Below are positions 4,507-25,762 of a stretch of 33,974 nucleotides of DNA, piece after piece. The stretch spans positions 1-33,974 of IMG/VR virus record IMGVR_UViG_2711768075_000013. One strand, 5' to 3'. The position numbers and the translations under genes were made by a program. Every line of letters starts with the position of its first letter. Position 1 is the stretch's first letter. The DNA comes from a virus. Lineage: Duplodnaviria > Heunggongvirae > Uroviricota > Caudoviricetes. The notes below the pieces were generated by a model. It did not search any database. It was given only the letters and a program-made list of their open reading frames with translations, and was not told where the DNA came from.

Positions 4507-4856
4507 TACATAATCCTCACAGGGTGTTCAAACGTCTGCGGTGTGCCCGCGTTATCCGTGACGGTGATTAACAGCAACAACCAGCCGCGCTGGCCCGCTT
4601 TCGTGTCAACGGTAATGGATTTTGCCCGCCCGTCATCAAGCAGGGGCTGAAGCGCCTGACTGGCATACTGCGCCGCCAGCCTGTGAACACGGGAAACGTC
4701 TTTTTCCCGCTTCAGTTCGTGCAGGCGTGACCCCAGCGACGCATCCGCCCAGTAACTGCCAAGCGGCGTCGCCAGTCGCAGATAAACCGCGTTATGAAGT
4801 GTATAAATCCGGCGGCGTTCGTAGTCGCCGGTTGCAGGTGAAATCGTCTGGTCCAT
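4506..4856 (-). CDS. baseplate protein (Mu gp46 / GPW-like)
   Basis: 116-aa protein preceding the J-like gene. Confidence 0.65.
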   Translation of the reverse strand: MDQTISPATGDYERRRIYTLHNAVYLRLATPLGSYWADASLGSRLHELKREKDVSRVHRLAAQYASQALQPLLDDGRAKSITVDTKAGQRGWLLLLITVTDNAGTPQTFEHPVRIM

Positions 4857-4884
4857 GCCGCCAGTCTGGCAGCATGGACAGGTC

Positions 4885-4912
4885 AGAATCAGGTGAGGGT
4901 GTTCAGCACTTA
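4885..4912 (-). promoter_or_regulatory. third copy of the GTGCTGAACACCC motif, between gp45-like and gp46-like baseplate genes
   Basis: Minus-sense AAGTGCTGAACACCCTCAC overlapping the stop of the gp45-like gene, about 42 nt before the gp46-like ATG. Confidence 0.3.
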
Positions 4913-5563: not shown

Positions 5564-6771
5564 TTCTCCCAGACCTTAACAATGGCGACCTCTTTTTTCT
5601 TTTTGCCCCTGCGGTGATGGCGTTTCTTCTCACGCGGGAAGGCGTCAGGTATCCACACGCCGTCCTCCTTAAAGCGAAGCCGGGTTGTCTGCCCGTTCCG
5701 GCCTCCGCTGAACTCACGCCCCATCAGGAAAAAGATGGCATCAATGCCGTGGAGTTCGCTGACAATCCGCACACGCTGGCCGGGCTGCCACAGGACACCG
5801 TCCGCCGTGCGATGGCCTGCAACCAGTGCAACGATATCCAGCCCCGACAGACGGGCATCACTCATCATTTTTTTTGCGCGCCAGTTCACCTGCTCCATGT
5901 TACTGGTGTCGCCCTGGGTGATTATCTGCGGGCGGTAATAATCCACGGTGGGGTCGGTGGCCACGGCTTTCATGTTATGAATGCCTGTCTGACCACCACC
6001 TGCATTACCGCTGCCCTGCCCGGATAATGTGCGCACGCTGCCGTCCTCGTTCCAGATGTCCAGTGGCACCACGGCTACCTGTTTCTTGCTGTCTGCGCGG
6101 CGGGCGTGGCTCTGAGCCAGTACTGTCAGTTCGGAGAAACAGCCGTTAATGGACCTGGTATCGTCCAGCTCCATCACGTTGTTCCCGGTACCGTCCAGCT
6201 TCAGAATCAGCGTGTCCACCGGCGTGGTGGTGTAGTCAGGGCCACCCACAACCAGCGTACCGTCAGGCTCAAACCACGGCCATAAGCCGCGACCGGCGGC
6301 AGCTTTAGCCAGTGCATCCCACGCACGCATCCCCGGCTCTATAACGACCTTGTCATTACGTGACACACCAGACGCCTGAATACGGATGCGCTGTATCCCC
6401 AGCGGTCTGACTATCCTGTCGATGACCTCGTCCAGTGTCAGCTGATTGGCGCTGAACACCGGCGCGGCACAGTCCACCAGAATGGCGGCATCATCACGCC
6501 CGGACAGGGTCAGCGCGCAGCTCTGACGGGATACACTGCGGCGCACGCTGTCCACGCGACCACTAAGGACCGTCTCATCTCCCACCTGCAAACGGACTGG
6601 CACACCCCGGACGATATCCGCCGGGAACACCTTTTCAGGCAGTCCCAGCTGAAGCTGCCACCCGTCGGCTGCTTTCAGGAAATCGCTGTCAATACGATAA
6701 CTGCTCCAGTCAGAATGCGATCTTCCGGCAATGACCAGGCTGATTTTGTCGTCGTTATTTTGCATAGGCAT
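5560..6771 (-). CDS. baseplate hub protein (Mu P / gp44-like)
   Basis: 403-aa protein, gene order. Confidence 0.7.
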   Translation of the reverse strand: MPMQNNDDKISLVIAGRSHSDWSSYRIDSDFLKAADGWQLQLGLPEKVFPADIVRGVPVRLQVGDETVLSGRVDSVRRSVSRQSCALTLSGRDDAAILVDCAAPVFSANQLTLDEVIDRIVRPLGIQRIRIQASGVSRNDKVVIEPGMRAWDALAKAAAGRGLWPWFEPDGTLVVGGPDYTTTPVDTLILKLDGTGNNVMELDDTRSINGCFSELTVLAQSHARRADSKKQVAVVPLDIWNEDGSVRTLSGQGSGNAGGGQTGIHNMKAVATDPTVDYYRPQIITQGDTSNMEQVNWRAKKMMSDARLSGLDIVALVAGHRTADGVLWQPGQRVRIVSELHGIDAIFFLMGREFSGGRNGQTTRLRFKEDGVWIPDAFPREKKRHHRRGKKKKEVAIVKVWEK

Positions 6772-8104: not shown

Positions 8105-10377
8105 CAGTAAGTTCCTCCCGTGCCTCTGTTACCGTCCTGAAGGTTGTATTTGTTCACTGCTTCCGCCACAATCTGACCATCGAGCACCAGTTGTGTGGTG
8201 AAATTAATGGGGCTGGCAGGTGGCCCCCAGTGCGTGAGGTATCCCGGCTGGGTGATGCGTCCGGGTTGCGTTGATACTGATTCAGGCGTTGTGTTTCCGG
8301 CGGCTTTGTTGACCTGCGCCGGTGATGGCAGGGCATCAGCTGCGGCTTTTTTCCTGTCTTCCTCCCAGCGCCTCAACCACTCTTCGTTTTCGGTGGAGTA
8401 GCCTTCCCCAAACTGCCACCACGGCTGGTATTTTTTGCGGGCAGCATCGATGATTTCCTGGGGATATCGGGCGCGGATGCGCTTCCAGCGTTCCTCGCTT
8501 CCTTCGACGGCGGCGTCTTCTTCCGGGCTGGTTGCGGTGGCCAGTGCCGTAACGGTGCCACCGAAAGAAAGCAGGCTACCGGCAATGCCGGGGAATTTAA
8601 ATCCTTTGCCTTTTTTGACCGTGTTTTCAATTACATCACCGACAACCTCGCCAGCCTTGCCACCGGTTTTACCCCCGGTCAGGATTTTGATCCCGGCCCA
8701 TGTCAGAGCCGCTGCGGTCATCGCTTCAATGGCGGTCGTGGCACCCACCACTGCCGTGGTCAGTCCCGGAAACTTTTCACCCGCCCAGCTTATGGCATCG
8801 GCCACAGTACCGGACGCATCAGCCAGCTTTTTCATGCTGTCCATTTGTGAAAATTCAAGCGTGTTTTTGGCCTGTTCGGTTTTAAAGTCATTGAGGCCGG
8901 ATATGAATTTAAAATCCACATCACCCGCGCGCTGACCTTCCGGCAGGGTGCGCTGCTGATTAATCGCGTCTTCAACCTTTTTCCGGTATTCAGGGTTGTT
9001 ACGGTAAGCCAGCAACGCTTTTAACGCCTGTTGGTCTGCAACCAGTTTCCCGACACCAAAGCCTTCAAGGAGTTTTGCCATCGAATCATAAACAGCTGTC
9101 TGCTCGCCTTTATCCCGGGCGGAGGCCAGTTTCTTTTGCAACTCCTGAAAGCGTTTATCGCTGGCAACGATTTTGTCTATCAGACTGGACAGCGCATCTA
9201 TCGGATCAAGCCCATGTTCGCGCGCCTGAACCAGCGTGCCGGAAAAATCAATTCCTTTACCGTTGTAATCAATGCTCTTTGCCGCTGTTTCAATATCGTG
9301 GCTGGTCAGTTTAGCCAGCAGGTTAAACACGTTATTTCCGGCCTCATCACTGCTTCCCGCCGTGATGGCGGCAGCTTCATTCAGCGCCAGAATCTTGACA
9401 AAATCATCCTTGCCTCTCATCCCCGCAGCTGACGCTGACCCCAGTTGCGAAGATAACCAGCGGGCCATGTCGCTCAGTTCAAAGCTACCTTCTTTGCCCG
9501 CTGCAATTGCCATATTCAGAACGGTGGAAATATCTTCATCCCTGAATCCAAAGGTCTTTTTACCCTTAAGCATCACATTAGCCAGGTCTGTCGCTGATGC
9601 ACCGGAAGCCGTGGCGTATTTCATCAGTTCAGGCAGCCACTTACTGGCTGTTTCAAATGAAATACCGCCATCTTTCAGCAGGGCATCCAGCGTTTCGGCG
9701 GCGTCTTCTTTCGTGCCGCCACCCCAGGTCACCGCGTTACGGATGCTGTTTTTCATCTGCTCAAGACCAGCCCTGCGCCCCTCCAGCCCGCTATCACTGA
9801 AGGCGGTATTGGCCATCATTGCCAGCTGGCGTTCGTAGCTCATCTGCTTTTTGACCGGCTGCGCCATAATGGCAGCACCTGCTGCGATACCAGCGCCTGT
9901 TGTCACGGCATTCCCGCCAAATGCAGCCGCACGGGCAAAACGCCCCGGTTCGGGGATAACAGGCGTTTTCGCCATCTTCATCTGTGCCTGAGTGACGCCA
10001 TCCAGTTCACGCTTGAGTGCCCGGGCTTTTTCCCGGGTGGCCTGCATGGCGCGTTCCTGCTCCTGCGCAGATTCAAAACCGGCACGAGCCAGACGGTTAT
10101 AACTGGCAACCGTCAGATAAATTTCACGCCGGATCTCACGCTCTGCACGAATACCGAGCGTTTCCCGGGCACGGGCGGCACGCTGTATCTCTTTTGCGGC
10201 CTTTTTCGTGCTGTTAACGCTTTCCTGTCCGGTACGCCTCTGCTCTGCGCCTGCCTTCCGTGTTGCCTTTGTTACATCTTCGGTGGCTTTGATAACCTGT
10301 TTTTGTCCCTTTTCCAGAACCTGCGAGGCTTCATCCTTCGCAGTCAGGGTCATGCCAACTTTGAAATTACCGGCCAT
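8104..10377 (-). CDS. tail tape measure protein
   Basis: 757-aa Ala/Lys/Gly-rich protein at the canonical position. Confidence 0.8.
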   Translation of the reverse strand: MAGNFKVGMTLTAKDEASQVLEKGQKQVIKATEDVTKATRKAGAEQRRTGQESVNSTKKAAKEIQRAARARETLGIRAEREIRREIYLTVASYNRLARAGFESAQEQERAMQATREKARALKRELDGVTQAQMKMAKTPVIPEPGRFARAAAFGGNAVTTGAGIAAGAAIMAQPVKKQMSYERQLAMMANTAFSDSGLEGRRAGLEQMKNSIRNAVTWGGGTKEDAAETLDALLKDGGISFETASKWLPELMKYATASGASATDLANVMLKGKKTFGFRDEDISTVLNMAIAAGKEGSFELSDMARWLSSQLGSASAAGMRGKDDFVKILALNEAAAITAGSSDEAGNNVFNLLAKLTSHDIETAAKSIDYNGKGIDFSGTLVQAREHGLDPIDALSSLIDKIVASDKRFQELQKKLASARDKGEQTAVYDSMAKLLEGFGVGKLVADQQALKALLAYRNNPEYRKKVEDAINQQRTLPEGQRAGDVDFKFISGLNDFKTEQAKNTLEFSQMDSMKKLADASGTVADAISWAGEKFPGLTTAVVGATTAIEAMTAAALTWAGIKILTGGKTGGKAGEVVGDVIENTVKKGKGFKFPGIAGSLLSFGGTVTALATATSPEEDAAVEGSEERWKRIRARYPQEIIDAARKKYQPWWQFGEGYSTENEEWLRRWEEDRKKAAADALPSPAQVNKAAGNTTPESVSTQPGRITQPGYLTHWGPPASPINFTTQLVLDGQIVAEAVNKYNLQDGNRGTGGTY

Positions 10378-10624
10378 TTTTCTGCTTACCTTTTCTGCGT
10401 TTCTTCCTGAGGGATTTAAATGACTGGCGGGTGGTCTGTGAGGTGTCCTTCCTTCCTGAGCCGCCGCCGCTCAGCCTGTCAACGGCAGCAAGCCAGCCGT
10501 CCAGCTCGGGACGGCTCATGGTCATGATTTGATCTTCGGTTATTCCGTAGCGCCCGAGGATAAGGACTGCGAGCCGGAGTCCGGCGAGCCGGGATTCCCG
10601 CCGTTCCGCTTTACCTTCAGGACG
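10367..10624 (-). other. -1 frame extension ORF for a programmed-frameshift chaperone fusion (G/GT-like)
   Basis: My translation of the -1 frame is open from about 10624 to a stop at 10367-10369, has no start of its own within the overlap, and ends just inside the tape measure start. Confidence 0.4.
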
Positions 10625-15688: not shown

Positions 15689-16813
15689 TTACTTTTCTCC
15701 TGCGTAACGGGCGATATCTTCTGGATCAACGCCCATCATTGAACAAATGGCGATATCGATATCGACGTCATCGCCGGTTTTAATCTGCGCCGGGGCCGGT
15801 GACGGCGTTTGGGGTGGTTTGCCGCCCGTCTGGGTCTGACTGAGCGCAACAAGTTTCGGTGCGTTATCCAGCCAGGACTTAAAGCCGTTGATATCGCGGC
15901 TGGCGTAATCTTTCGCCCAGTCTTCCTGTGCCGGAAGCAGTCGCCCGTCAGACAGCGCCGCCTGAATCAGTGCCCCGGCTTCGGCCTCACCGGACTGTTG
16001 CGCCAGTGCGGCATAACGCCCCTGAAGTTCTTCGAAGGCAGCAAGGGAAATGTGTTTTGACGGGTCATAGGCACTGGCTGACAGGCTGGCGATTTGCTCA
16101 TCTTTCTGATTCAGCAGGGCCAGCAGGCTGACGGATGCCGCCGCCGTTCCCTGACCGTTCGAAATCATGTCAACGACCTTTTGCAGCTCGTTTTTGATAT
16201 CTTCCGCCGTTGAGGTAACCGGGAGGTTAAGCATCCAGCGCAGACTGGACAGCAAATCGTTTAACAGTTCTTCATCCACTGTTGTGGTCTCCGTTTCAGT
16301 TGACAGACTCGCCAGACGGCTGGCCGCAGCCAGCATGACCGCGTCCATACCGTCCAGCGCCGGGGTATTGGTCAGTGCGGCGTGTAACAGTTCGATGACT
16401 TCGCCGCGCCGGTTGTATCCAAATACCGGGGAAATAAATTTGTACTCTCCGGCGGCAATCATGGCCGCCGCGTTCTCCGTCCACTCCACACCGATGGCAT
16501 ACAGGCCCGAACCTTCACGCCATTCCACCTGGCTGAACCAGCCCGCCGCCGGGGCAGGCTTGCCGTTGTTTACGGCGCGCAGCGTCTGATGTTCGTAATC
16601 AATGACAAAAGGCGTGGTACGGGCTGCCACCTGTGCGACAAGCTGCGCGGCCAGTCCGGCAGTCAGCACCCATTTACCGCTTTCGACTTCATCGGTATAC
16701 GGGCGACCATCCACCGCGCTGAACTCGCCTGCCGGAAACAGCTGGATTTCGCTGTGGGTTGCTTTAGTAATTTCGAGGCTTAACGCCGCAATGTTCATCT
16801 TCATGCGCGGCAT
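15689..16813 (-). CDS. I: head maturation protease / scaffold protein I (Mu gp32-like)
   Basis: Position before the major capsid gene; ORF-track start 16858 is a GTG inside the upstream motif, so the first ATG (16813) was chosen; start remains uncertain. Confidence 0.75.
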   Translation of the reverse strand: MPRMKMNIAALSLEITKATHSEIQLFPAGEFSAVDGRPYTDEVESGKWVLTAGLAAQLVAQVAARTTPFVIDYEHQTLRAVNNGKPAPAAGWFSQVEWREGSGLYAIGVEWTENAAAMIAAGEYKFISPVFGYNRRGEVIELLHAALTNTPALDGMDAVMLAAASRLASLSTETETTTVDEELLNDLLSSLRWMLNLPVTSTAEDIKNELQKVVDMISNGQGTAAASVSLLALLNQKDEQIASLSASAYDPSKHISLAAFEELQGRYAALAQQSGEAEAGALIQAALSDGRLLPAQEDWAKDYASRDINGFKSWLDNAPKLVALSQTQTGGKPPQTPSPAPAQIKTGDDVDIDIAICSMMGVDPEDIARYAGEK

Positions 16814-16831
16814 GATGACGGAAGGGGAACA

Positions 16832-16864
16832 CGGGGTACTGTGGAGGGTGTTCAGCACCCTGCC
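16832..16864 (-). promoter_or_regulatory. conserved hairpin-like motif upstream of protease/scaffold gene I
   Basis: Minus-sense GGGTGCTGAACACCCTCCACAGTACCCC, near-identical to the lysis-site motif including the CAGTACCC extension. Confidence 0.35.
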
Positions 16865-16884: not shown

Positions 16885-16921
16885 GGGAAATAAAACCGTT
16901 TTTAAAACCCTTTTAAAAACG
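16885..16921 (-). terminator. AT-rich hairpin with U-tract after gene G (candidate weak intrinsic terminator)
   Basis: Inverted repeat CGTTTTTAAAA-ccc-TTTTAAAAACG followed on the minus strand by GGTTTTATTT. Confidence 0.3.
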
Positions 16922-17013
16922 ATTCTGGCGGCATTTATGGGGTGCGGTGCTGCAATGCCTCATCCGTGAGGCGTTTATGTCGTCAGAAGCGATTACAGCG
17001 CGCTTCTGGTCAT

Positions 17014-17565: not shown

Positions 17566-18728
17566 GATGCCTCCGGGGTGTCCTGCATCACCCAGTCTGT
17601 CAGCGTGCCATCCTCAACCGTCACCACCGACCAGCGGTCGCCTGACTGTAACGCATACCGCCACGCGTTACCGTCCTGCGTGACATGCTCCGCCCGTTCG
17701 ATGGTCTGCTGCATCAGCGCATAGTCGGCGGCGGTCGGGGGCGTGTCTGCTGCGCTGAGGCGCTGCATGACGTCAGCCGTAAGGTTTACCGTCTGCCGTG
17801 CAGCGCCCGTGGCGGCGACCTGTTCCGGTGAACGGATGGCCAGCGGATATCGCTGGCGCGCATCCAGTTCGCTGACGTTCGCCAGTCCTCGGGCAAAATC
17901 CGGCCCGGTCAGCGTGCCGGTGACATACTGGCGGGCGCTGCGGTAATCATATTTTTCCAGTTCCGGCTGCCATGCCACCCGACCGGGATTAAATCCAAAG
18001 CCCGGGTCGGCGGTATACACGGATCCGTCCGGCATTTTCAGCCCCATCGTTCTGATGGTCTGGCCCGGCTGGCCATATTCCTGCTCAACCTCAACCAGCC
18101 GCCCCTCGCTGCTCTGCACCGTCAGGCCATATTTCTCCACATCCGACGCCGAACGCGCCCGGATACGGCAGCGGCATCCGTACCCGTCCGGCGCGTAGAG
18201 ATACTCCCAGACCGGATCATCCGCCCGGGCGGTAAAACCGTTCAGGGCGGCGTGTTTCGGGCGGGTGTGAAGGTCCATCACCGCCACGCGCTCAAAATAA
18301 GGCCGGTCAGCCACGTTCGCCATCTGCTGCTGATAACGTCCGGCGTTGTAGGACGACTGAATGTTGGTATCAAATATCGTGCGCAACCGGCGCGGCGTCA
18401 GCTGTCTGCCGTGCAGTTCGCCGGTGTCCTCGTCCACAATCAGCTTTTTACCCAGCCAGCCTTTTGATTCCAGCAGTGGTTCCAGTTGTGCTGCAAACTC
18501 CCGGAACGTCCCGCCATCAGCCAGTGCCGTCGTCAGGCCATCACGGATATCCTTCAGAACATCCAGTTTCAGCACGCCTGCCACCGTGAACGCCCGGGCA
18601 CTGGCGATGTCCCTCACATCGTGCCAGCGGAAGCCGATAACGTATCCCTTGCTTTCGAAATACCTAATCGCTTCTTCCGGTTTCAGGGTGTACGCATAAC
18701 CCAGGTCAACATCGTCAGCTGTCGGCAT
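17562..18728 (-). CDS. head morphogenesis protein F (Mu gp30-like)
   Basis: 388-aa protein following portal; gene order. Confidence 0.8.
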   Translation of the reverse strand: MPTADDVDLGYAYTLKPEEAIRYFESKGYVIGFRWHDVRDIASARAFTVAGVLKLDVLKDIRDGLTTALADGGTFREFAAQLEPLLESKGWLGKKLIVDEDTGELHGRQLTPRRLRTIFDTNIQSSYNAGRYQQQMANVADRPYFERVAVMDLHTRPKHAALNGFTARADDPVWEYLYAPDGYGCRCRIRARSASDVEKYGLTVQSSEGRLVEVEQEYGQPGQTIRTMGLKMPDGSVYTADPGFGFNPGRVAWQPELEKYDYRSARQYVTGTLTGPDFARGLANVSELDARQRYPLAIRSPEQVAATGAARQTVNLTADVMQRLSAADTPPTAADYALMQQTIERAEHVTQDGNAWRYALQSGDRWSVVTVEDGTLTDWVMQDTPEAS

Positions 18729-23465: not shown

Positions 23466-23648
23466 TCAGTTCTGCGAACACTGCCGGATACCGTCAATAA
23501 TCCGGCAGACCTGCGCCGCCGCGTCAAACAGCTGGCCCGCTCTGTTAATGTCTGAGCATCCCACCGGAAGCAACATCATCAGAAACAGGGCCAGAACACA
23601 GCGCGCGGCTTTACGTGGCGTTCTGTGGGGCCAGCGACTTCTGTTCAT
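23466..23648 (-). CDS. small lipoprotein (o-spanin-like lysis accessory candidate)
   Basis: Hydrophobic segment then LLPVGC lipobox-like motif, about 30-aa mature part; position right after the endolysin. Confidence 0.4.
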   Translation of the reverse strand: MNRSRWPHRTPRKAARCVLALFLMMLLPVGCSDINRAGQLFDAAAQVCRIIDGIRQCSQN

Positions 23649-24702: not shown

Positions 24703-24837
24703 GAGTTTCTCCTGTAAATCTGAGCCACTGACGGCCCGTAAATAACACCCTGTCAAAGGCACAGAAGCCTTTTGCAGGGCGCTATCCCTTAAGGTGCCTT
24801 GTGGTCTGAGTGGACAGGGTAAACGGTCTGGTGTGGT

Positions 24838-24868
24838 GGGTACTGCTGGGGGTGTTCAGCACCCCCGG
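24838..24868 (-). promoter_or_regulatory. conserved hairpin-like motif upstream of the lysis cassette (late-promoter activator site candidate)
   Basis: Minus-sense CCGGGGGTGCTGAACACCCCCAGCAGTACCC: 7-bp inverted arms GGGGGTG / CACCCCC around CTGAA. Confidence 0.35.
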
Positions 24869-24889
24869 CAGGTTGATTATCTGGATGGG

Positions 24890-25177
24890 TTAAAGGGAAG
24901 CGAGTTTTAATGGTGGCTTATAACATGCCCGCGCCAGCAGGTTAGCTCTTTCCACGGCATTACGCATTTCCCGTTCTGCGTCAATCATTCTGTTTACGGC
25001 TGACAGCACTTCATCATGATTCGTTACTGATTCCGGGCTTTGGGCCTGTTTCGCCAGGTAACTGGATAAATTGCACATTTCAGCATGTCGGCGACGGGCT
25101 GCATCCCGGGCCTTGTCTGAAAATGCGGTATATTCACCGAGTACTGCATAGTCGATATCGGTGTCAGAACGCATCAT
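24890..25177 (-). CDS. hypothetical protein, 95 aa
   Basis: AAGGAGA RBS upstream of ATG; lies between the activator gene and the lysis-operon motif. Confidence 0.4.
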   Translation of the reverse strand: MMRSDTDIDYAVLGEYTAFSDKARDAARRRHAEMCNLSSYLAKQAQSPESVTNHDEVLSAVNRMIDAEREMRNAVERANLLARACYKPPLKLASL

Positions 25178-25204: not shown

Positions 25205-25672
25205 TTAATCAAAAAGCCCCACCTGGGTGGGGCTTTTCAGCGAAGTCTGTTTTTGTCGTCGGTGTATCAGCTGCCATGCGTACCGGTCTGAAATCCCGTA
25301 GCGGGGACAGAGCAGTGCCAGCGCCTGCCGGTGTGAGCATCCGTCTTTTACATGCTGCTGTAAATCAGCCATAAAACGGGTGTTACGCAGGGCACGTAAC
25401 GCATGATCACAACGGGGAATGTAAAACGGTGCACCGCCAAGAAAGCGGATCAGTTTGTTGATTTCGTCTTCGGTCAGCACATCATGTAACAGGGCATGGA
25501 CACCGCCGGTGCGTCCGGCGTGTGCGCCGGTTTTACCGCTTAACGTCACGCCACCAAAAGAACGGATTAACCGGGTCAGGGCGGGGAAGCCAATCACGCT
25601 AATCAGTTGCTGTACGGAATCGGGCAGCAGTGCCTGCGCATCGCGAAGATCTGTTTCACTGAAGGTCTGCAT
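25205..25672 (-). CDS. Mor/C-family transcriptional activator (middle or late activator)
   Basis: Motifs FGG...YIP and C-terminal HTH YGISDRYAWQLI typical of Mor/C; sits just upstream of the lysis cassette with its own promoter and terminators. Confidence 0.7.
   Translation of the reverse strand: MQTFSETDLRDAQALLPDSVQQLISVIGFPALTRLIRSFGGVTLSGKTGAHAGRTGGVHALLHDVLTEDEINKLIRFLGGAPFYIPRCDHALRALRNTRFMADLQQHVKDGCSHRQALALLCPRYGISDRYAWQLIHRRQKQTSLKSPTQVGLFD
25210..25234 (-). terminator. hairpin plus T-tract overlapping the 3' end of the Mor/C-family gene
   Basis: Minus strand AGCCCCACC-ca-GGTGGGGCT followed by TTTTT, ending a few nt before the stop codon. Confidence 0.4.
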
Positions 25673-25694: not shown

Positions 25695-25731
25695 TACTGT
25701 TATTATAGCCATACATGATCGCCTGTACAGA
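25695..25731 (-). promoter_or_regulatory. candidate promoter of the Mor/C-family activator gene
   Basis: Consensus TATAAT (plus 25702-25707) about 25 nt upstream of the GGAGA RBS; -35 region is poor (CTGTAC), as expected for an activator-dependent promoter. Confidence 0.4.
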
Positions 25732-25734
25732 CCA

Positions 25735-25762
25735 CAAAAAAGCCCCTGCAAGGCAGGGGCTG
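25735..25762 (-). terminator. rho-independent terminator after the GemA-like gene
   Basis: Minus strand AGCCCCTGC-cttg-CAGGGGCT followed by TTTTTT. Confidence 0.55.

Follow-up and report, generated by a model that had tools for sequence, protein, structure and literature searches.

Candidate operator sites for a Mor/C-family activator at three late promoters of a Mu-like prophage of E. coli

The stretch of DNA analysed here (the window, 33,974 nucleotides) carries one short motif in three of its intergenic gaps, and the question raised by this locus is whether the copies are binding sites for the Mor/C-family activator that the same element encodes or elements that act in RNA. The DNA is that of a Mu-like transposable prophage of E. 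coli whose genes lie on the minus strand, and a segment of E. coli RIVM_C036569 is 100% identical to the window. Relatives of the prophage occur in 61 of 5426 complete E. coli genomes. A megablast comparison of the region with the phage collection gave no match, and among sequenced phages the best relative at the protein level has 41% identity. According to the PGAP annotation of the identical E. coli prophage and to PHROG and Pfam scans, the early side runs from transposase A and B through early genes and GemA to a 155-aa Mor-family protein and a 95-aa ORF. These are followed by a lysis and packaging side (holins, M15 endolysin, terminase, portal, F and G), a head and tail side (protease I, major head protein, sheath, tape measure, N, gp44-like and gp45-like) and a tail end (gp46-like gene, gp47 and tail fibres). 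The entire late region lies inside the window, and the host gene dtpB starts just past window position 1.

The repeated motif and its placement

The plus-strand core GGTGTTCAGCAC is exact at the three sites and belongs to a 13-mer, GGGTGTTCAGCAC on the plus strand and GTGCTGAACACCC in the minus sense, that has exactly three copies (Table 1). All copies share one orientation, which is the sense of the minus-strand phage genes, and all lie in non-coding gaps, namely between the 95-aa ORF and the holin, between G and protease I, and between the gp45-like and gp46-like baseplate genes. The original prediction, made from the letters of this stretch, had described three intergenic sites with a common core, a lysis copy that heads the lysis operon, and an extension shared by the lysis and I copies at an equal offset. 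Each of these descriptions holds, and the extension is CAGTACCC, which is present only at those two copies with an offset of 5 nt.

Copy number by itself is weak evidence for the motif, since some 12-mer reaches at least three copies in 16 of 100 mononucleotide shuffles and six other such 12-mers are found in the window, all in coding sequence and in mixed orientation. Copies with one mismatch at 340-351 and 6449-6460 lie in coding sequence and have background scores. We judge the motif to be non-random because of its placement, its orientation, and the 23-29 bits that a matrix from other genomes assigns to the three sites.

Table 1. Positions of the motif copies, predicted promoter elements and neighbouring features in the window
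Feature	Position	Strand	Details
Motif copy, lysis	24850-24862	(-)	core 24851-24862
Motif copy, I	16846-16858	(-)	core 16847-16858
Motif copy, gp46	4897-4909	(-)	core 4898-4909
Plys operator	24845-24860	(-)	imperfect dyad; alignable to lysis-upstream sites in 12 relatives; PWM 24.6 bits
Plys -10-like hexamer TACCCT	24816-24821	(-)	23 bp after dyad; A2/T6 conserved
Plys predicted start	~24809 +/-2	(-)	leader ~107 nt to holin ATG; SD sequence AGGAG
Holin, first ATG	24702	(-)
PI operator	16841-16856	(-)	aligned counterpart in the G-I spacer of every relative examined; PWM 23.1 bits
PI -10-like hexamer CATCAT	16812-16817	(-)	followed by 7 nt, then gene I ATG
PI predicted start	16804/5	(-)	at gene I ATG
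Protease I ATG	16802-16804	(-)	starts at 16804
gp46 promoter operator	4892-4907	(-)	begins 3 nt past gp45-like stop codon; top window PWM score, 28.8 bits
gp46 -10-like hexamer CAGACT	4863-4868	(-)	followed by 6 nt, then gp46-like ATG
gp46 predicted start	4856/7	(-)	at gp46-like ATG
gp46-like ATG	4854-4856	(-)	starts at 4856
Mor/C-family activator, 155 aa	25205-25672	(-)	Pfam PF08765 28.3 bits (gathering cutoff 24.9); PHROG 836 'late transcriptional activator', E 1e-42
95-aa ORF	24890-25177	(-)	directly upstream of Plys
Extended hairpin CUGCCGGGGGUG-CUGAA-CACCCCCAGCAG	24843-24871	(-)	lysis site only; overlaps operator; no U tract after
Predicted lysis-operon leader	24703-24809	(-)	long hairpin structure, -43 kcal/mol, z -3.5
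Terminator-like hairpin + U6, gemA/activator gap	25702-25761	(-)	hairpin and U6 at 25761-25741; -18 kcal/mol, z -3.9
Near-consensus sigma-70 promoter TGTACA-16-TATAAT	25729-25702	(-)	past the gemA-side terminator
12-bp hairpin AAAAGCCCCAC-CCAG-GTGGGGCUUUUU	25210-25240	(-)	overlaps activator stop codon; -21 kcal/mol, z -2.3
Activator C-terminus QVGLFD	25205-25225	(-)	fits sliding-clamp-binding pattern Qxx[LM]F
A/T-tract element	16895-16925	(-)	minus sense CGTTTTTAAAAGGGTTTTAAAAACGGTTTTATTT

Anatomy of the sites and their conservation among relatives

The sites were compared across ~15 related Mu-like prophages, whose activators are 31-92% identical to that of the window. Close relatives were IMG/VR loci (L003-L020, activator 92-100% identical), and more distant ones (L023-L034, activator 36-55% identical) were found by scanning GTDB genomes with an alignment, in Xenorhabdus, Trabulsiella, Photorhabdus, Intestinirhabdus, Morganella, Buttiauxella, Lonepinella and Serratia. 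Orthologous genes were located by tblastn and the sites were aligned on CTGA, which gave a set of 29 sites from ~15 genomes that includes the first seven of these genera, IMG/VR contigs and the Klebsiella phage ST405-OXA48phi1.1. Most comparison loci were retrieved via the activator homolog, so the co-occurrence of protein and site is no independent test, and the sites are related by descent, so site counts do not represent independent events.

Judged by this alignment, the motif is the left half and spacer of a 16-bp dyad, GCTGA-N6-TCAGC (Table 2). The original prediction had found no convincing -10 hexamer after the motif, which the comparison contradicts: an nAnnnT hexamer lies exactly 23 bp past the dyad at each window site and at 27 of the 29 sites overall, with the other two displaced by 1 bp, against a background of 4.3% in the same stretches. 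This spacing places the dyad centre at -43.5, a value computed from the predicted -10. Information content across the 29 sites peaks only in the dyad and at A2 and T6 of the hexamer, and the bases between them are unconserved. At the Plys position, the diverged relatives L020 and L019 have TATCCT or TATCTT while adjacent bases change. The PI position reads CATCAT, CATGAT, TATGCT, TACGCT or TACACT in relatives, each followed after 6-7 nt by an ATG, and the gp46 position reads CACACT, 7 nt and ATG in L063 and CATCAT, 6 nt and GTG in L157.

The -10 hexamers of the window match TATAAT weakly, at 3-4 of 6 positions, its right half-sites (CCAGC, TCCAC and TCACC) are degenerate, and the -35 positions read AGTACC, AGTACC and TGATTC. 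A consensus sigma-70 scan detected no complete promoter at the three sites. Each window site has a recognisable -10 without a -35 hexamer, an imperfect ~16-bp dyad that is centred at -43.5 relative to the predicted -10 and lies at or abuts the -35 region, and a position at the head of a late operon (lysis, head and tail, at holin, protease I and gp46, respectively).

Other ways of parsing the sites were dropped. A larger dyad, GGGTGCTG-N11-CAGTACCC, was set aside because only the window lineage has its CAGTACCC arm, and the gp46 site lacks it. An upstream -10 (GATAAT or CGTTAT) that would put the motif at the RNA 5' end was abandoned because neither hexamer is conserved in sequence or in distance, and a sigma-54 reading by eye (TGGCAC-N5-TTGC) does not fit in spacing.

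Table 2. Dyads and -10-like hexamers of window, relatives and Mu in a common frame
Site	Left half, spacer, right half	Dyad to -10	-10-like hexamer and following bases
Window lysis	GCTGA-acaccc-CCAGC	23 bp	TACCCT
Window I	GCTGA-acaccc-TCCAC	23 bp	CATCAT gccgcgc ATG
Window gp46	GCTGA-acaccc-TCACC	23 bp	CAGACT ggcggc ATG
L027 lysis	GCTGA-accccc-TCAGC	23 bp	CACAAT
L027 I	GCTGA-accccc-TCAGC	23 bp	CATCAT
L023 lysis	GCTGA-acccct-TCAAA	23 bp	TACACT
L023 I	GCTGA-accccc-TCAAC	23 bp	TATGCT
L028 lysis	GCTGA-accctc-TCAAC	23 bp	TATACT
L028 I	GCTGA-accctc-TCATC	23 bp	TACGCT
L030 lysis	GCTGA-accccg-CCAAC	23 bp	TATACT
L030 I	GCTGA-accccg-CCAAC	23 bp	TACACT
L032 lysis	GCTGA-atgggg-TCATC	23 bp	AAAAAT
L032 I	GCTGA-atgcgg-TCATC	23 bp	TATGCT
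Mu Plys	TTCCT-gtcacc-ATAAT	23 bp	TAGACT
Mu PI	ACTCA-aatagc-ATAAC	23 bp	CAAACT
Mu PP	AGTTA-actgcc-ATAAC	23 bp	TATCCT
Mu Pmom	ATTAT-gcccca-ATAAC	23 bp	TAAGAT

In every relative, the G-I spacer and the region downstream of the activator gene each contain a version of the motif. The site between gp45 and gp46 is conserved in L063 and L078 (~60% aa identity), in the close relative L121 and in the Klebsiella phage. That sequenced phage, whose activator is 41% identical, has the variant ACTGA-AGCCCN-TCAAC upstream of the lysis genes, I and gp46, and in Serratia prophages the lysis and I sites read GACGA-ACCCCA-TCATC. The original prediction had staked itself on the motif recurring at orthologous positions in related phages, and it does so at lysis, I and gp46. 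When a matrix was built from 23 sites with the window lineage excluded, it ranked the three window sites first (scores in Table 1), followed by a window site at 14.0 bits, and the maximum among 30 shuffles was 15.2 bits. Scanning the window, the prophage ends and remaining prophage DNA, and phage Mu with this matrix revealed no further site and no fourth promoter.

The operators also vary in concert. Between the different promoters of one genome the operators differ at 2.07 of 20 positions, and between genomes orthologous operators differ at 5.78 of 20. None of 2000 label permutations reached the observed value, and the flanks are without such an effect. This concerted variation within genomes points to a phage-encoded binding protein.

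An exact-pattern scan of IMG/VR for GCTGAACNCCCTCANC matched at least 120 loci, and among the matches listed 90 of 120 were without Mu-like genes and some lay inside tail-fibre-region coding sequence without a -10. In another prophage lineage, L042, L147, L131 and five similar IMG/VR loci carry one very strong site, GTGCTGAACACCCTCAAC, followed after 23 bp by TACGAT (33-34 bits). This site follows the holin genes and precedes a homolog of window ORF 23466-23648, and the DNA examined for that lineage showed no site upstream of the holin. A Tenebrionibacter contig (L026 at 9938-9990) has GTGCTGAACACTC ~60 nt upstream of the activator homolog itself, with a combined score at background (14.5 bits) and a neighbourhood without recognisable Mu late genes.

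The predicted promoters also bear on how two late genes begin. Among all late genes, pairing with the anti-SD is weakest at gene I (+1.2 kcal/mol) and second-weakest at the gp46-like gene (-1.5 kcal/mol), compared with -4 to -12 kcal/mol for most others. In enterobacterial relatives, the I ATG and the gp46 ATG or GTG stand 6-7 nt past the -10, and the Pasteurellaceae relative L032 has a gene I leader of ~35 nt with GGAGA. Because their ATGs follow the -10 by 6-7 nt and they have no Shine-Dalgarno sequence, the I and gp46 mRNAs are predicted to be leaderless. We put at even odds the combined proposal that the A of the ATG is the 5' end of these mRNAs and that the half-site variants (GCTGA, ACTGA, GACGA and Mu TTAT) track the activator paralogs closely enough to yield a Mor/C recognition code.

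The activator and the competing explanations

The assignment of the gene at 25205-25672 to the Mor/C family is borne out by Pfam and PHROG (Table 1), so that the same element encodes such an activator. Its gene lies directly after gemA and 0.35 kb upstream of Plys, and tblastn found no second copy in the window. The protein shares 30% identity with Mu C and 23% with Mu Mor; compared with relatives that have two activators, it is 49-54% identical to the paralog in the C position and 36-37% to that in the Mor position. A single Mor/C gene closest to the C-position paralog implies a shortened cascade. The putative recognition helix has SDRxxW in place of the SQPQIY of Mu C, in which residues of this helix contact DNA and which is reported to bind as a tetramer covering ~26 bp (bioRxiv 10.1101/2025.05.02.651988). 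We presume that the 155-aa homolog is the protein that binds the dyads. A correspondence between paralog type and the first operator base (G or A) was considered and found too weak, as the Klebsiella phage protein is 45-47% identical to Mor-position paralogs and 43-44% to C-position paralogs.

Several features around activator genes were observed alongside. The Q..LF of the C-terminal motif (Table 1) is nearly invariant in 15 homologs, and late transcription by MuC requires a QPDLF motif and the sliding clamp (PMC12867686). The activator gene may be its own transcription unit, because a terminator-like hairpin and then a near-consensus promoter precede it. The hairpin over its stop codon looks like a terminator and was not called by the consensus scan. 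At 8920-10010 of L023, L025, L028 and L030, two Mor/C paralogs flank a small ORF, and upstream of the second activator gene CCACTGAACCCCTTCAAC is followed after 23 bp by AATACT, which makes a candidate middle promoter (Pm-like); past the AATACT lies a terminator-like hairpin that itself contains ACTGAACACC.

We consider it highly probable that the motif copies are the upstream operator halves of three activator-dependent sigma-70 late promoters, bound and activated by a single Mor/C-family protein. The comparison shows the sequence architecture directly, together with its conservation, the fixed spacing and the co-variation within genomes, whereas the identity of the binding protein and the activation itself are what we infer by analogy with Mu. 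The original prediction had named the sites as candidates for binding by this family, and in their placement and orthologous conservation they appear to behave as phage-activator sites within late promoters. The three promoters would drive the lysis and packaging operon, the head operon from gene I, and the baseplate and tail-fibre operon from the gp46-like gene. At each, an imperfect dyad at ~-43.5 would abut a poor -35 region, with a weak TAnnnT-type -10 located 23 bp downstream. A single Mor/C-family protein, made from the early region, would bind the dyad as an oligomer and recruit or reposition host sigma-70 RNA polymerase, in the manner of Mu C at Plys, PI, PP and Pmom.

The lysis copy may have a second use. 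Its arms are 7 bp long and, if one mismatch is allowed, extend to 11 pairs (-21 kcal/mol, z -3.9), whereas the I copy has arms of 5-6 bp and a weak hairpin (z -1.3) and at the gp46 copy a hairpin is essentially absent (z +0.5). The window hairpin exists because the spacer (ACACCC), in this lineage only, happens to complement bases upstream of the dyad (GGGTG), and other lineages have a different geometry or none; the promoter model does not require it. Strong hairpins nevertheless overlap the operator left half at the lysis sites of three lineages (window; L020; L023 and L025; z -2.6 to -4.9), and the Mu annotation has a terminator (10383-10406) that overlaps the Plys promoter feature (10403-10469). 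Because hairpins recur at lysis sites and, in Mu, the terminator of the middle operon extends over the left half of the Plys operator, the lysis site could serve both as operator and as a hairpin at which the upstream transcript (activator and 95-aa ORF) ends or by which its 3' end is stabilised. We regard this addition as unlikely, though worth keeping in mind, since the hairpins of the three lineages have three different geometries and six other lysis sites are without a significant one. In addition, the sense-strand tail is AGUACCCACC, with no U tract, the terminator scan flags 24843-24871 on the antisense strand only, and the I and gp46 copies have no stable hairpin, which is not how an intrinsic terminator appears.

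The dyad could also be a late-promoter operator that is bound by another factor, such as the 95-aa protein, GemA or a host protein. The position of the 95-aa ORF directly upstream of Plys is compatible with such a role, but the ORF is a swapped module with alleles ~46% identical in protein while the operator stays constant, and it is missing from most relatives that keep the operator. Furthermore, the geometry matches Mor/C sites exactly, and the within-genome co-variation of the operators speaks against a host factor, all of which makes another binding factor improbable.

The swapping of this module is sharply delimited. Among close E. coli relatives, the 95-aa ORF (PHROG 7152; module at 24866-25177) occurs as two alleles ~50% identical in DNA, and identity returns to 97-100% exactly at the Plys operator and at the ribosome-binding site of the ORF. 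The predicted lysis-operon leader (Table 1) is identical in both alleles of this upstream module.

The original prediction had held an RNA-level element to be equally possible. In such a reading, late transcripts would carry a stem-loop (GGGUG-CUGAA-CACCC), internally or at their 5' end, that controls stability, processing, antitermination or translation. The strong fold of the lysis copy is in favour of this reading, as is a GATAAT 13 nt upstream of that copy, which could set a start just before the hairpin; however, this GATAAT is missing from the alternative allele and from distant relatives, and the I and gp46 copies fold weakly or not at all. The predicted inverted repeat, with arms of 7 bp at lysis and 5 bp at I, was confirmed as such, but GGGTG-CTGAA-CACCC is not a conserved unit: 40% of its pair cells are complementary across the 29 sites, within the 25-48% of slid controls, with no excess covariation, and a structured cis-acting RNA whose stem is maintained across relatives is not what we find. 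An A>T spacer variant that is common in close relatives breaks one stem pair without compensation, and Rfam has no match for the motif. In contrast, 81% of cells obey the GCTGA/TCAGC symmetry (slid controls, 12-52%), and this symmetry is conserved in sequence with essentially no covariation, as is characteristic of a palindrome bound by protein and not of an RNA helix. Given the conserved -10, transcription would start downstream of the motif, and the motif would not be transcribed from these promoters, which makes the RNA reading untenable as an equal alternative and, in our estimate, very improbable. Finally, a chance repeat or a recombination or module-junction scar without regulatory role, to which the frequency of three-copy 12-mers and the position of the lysis copy exactly at a mosaic junction would lend themselves, is effectively refuted by the comparative data, as the other repeated words lie in coding sequence in mixed orientation and this motif is kept at three orthologous intergenic places across genera with a -10 at a fixed distance.

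Comparison with Mu and other systems

The late promoters of Mu have a 16-bp imperfect dyad centred at -43.5 and a recognisable -10 without a -35 (PMC2582627), and the consensus of the Mu C site is TTAT-N5-6-ATAA (PMC12867686). We placed the four annotated Mu late promoters (AF083977) in the frame of the window sites (Table 2). The two sets share an imperfect 16-bp dyad with 5-bp half-sites and a C-rich 6-bp spacer centred at -43.5, 23 bp from the dyad to a weak TAnnnT-type -10, and the lack of a usable -35. Both sets lie before the lysis and I operons, with one further promoter in the tail region, and in both phages a Mor/C-family activator gene lies just upstream of the lysis promoter. The parallel with the C-dependent promoters that the original prediction had drawn for lysis and I is therefore upheld, as the window sites match the positions of Mu Plys and PI. 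The half-sites differ, with GCTGA/TCAGC in the window and TTAT/ATAA in Mu; the window sites do not have the Mu C recognition sequence, and the clade matrix gives nothing above background in Mu, which suggests that the window sites function in the manner of C sites without being sites for Mu C itself. Promoters of the Mu C type are a well-known kind of element, here with another recognition sequence.

Further differences concern the layout. The third promoter lies upstream of gp46 in the window, whereas Mu PP lies inside gene N upstream of P, and Mu has a fourth promoter of the mom type that the matrix scan did not find in the window. Mu has two activator genes (Mor plus C) and the window one. 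The start codons of I and gp46 coincide with the predicted transcription starts in the window, whereas in Mu both lys and I are preceded by a leader of ~17-20 nt that includes a ribosome-binding site. The Mor-dependent Pm of Mu resembles the window sites in its protein family and in the class of dyad upstream of a poor -35, but a second activator gene and a middle promoter of this kind are both missing from the window. As a separate observation, the A/T-tract element at 16895-16925 is conserved in every relative's G-I spacer and resembles ATTTTTTAAAACGCG...GGGATTTTTAAACCGG of Mu (17890-17925) beside the annotated gyrase cut site, which suggests that it may be the counterpart of the strong gyrase site of Mu.

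In full-text literature searches, the operator sequence matched unrelated primers only, and queries about late promoters or leaderless genes of Mu-like phages turned up no earlier account of this operator or of leaderless late genes. The analysis provides an operator consensus and exact coordinates of the predicted promoters for a widespread Mu-like prophage group of Enterobacterales, including prophages of pathogenic E. coli, and the consensus enables late-operon annotation, prediction of transcription starts and design of inducible late-gene reporters. The sites are useful comparative material now that Mor/C-RNA polymerase structures and a link to the sliding clamp have been reported for Mu.

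Outside the Mor/C family, the late promoters of P2 and P4, which depend on Ogr and Delta, respectively, have a dyad, TGT-N12-ACA, near -55. They resemble the window sites in that several late operons of a temperate myovirus are each headed by the dyad of one activator and a weak sigma-70 promoter, but the activator belongs to an unrelated zinc-finger family and the dyad differs in position and spacing, which limits the likeness to analogy. Leaderless mRNAs are known as well, for example lambda cI from PRM, in which the start codon is the transcription start and no Shine-Dalgarno sequence is present, as predicted for I and gp46; in the window, unlike in lambda, leaderlessness is predicted from promoter geometry only. 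Taken together, these comparisons extend the Mor/C promoter model to sites with the same geometry and a different half-site, and the predicted leaderless I and gp46 mRNAs and the one-activator cascade represent testable departures from Mu.
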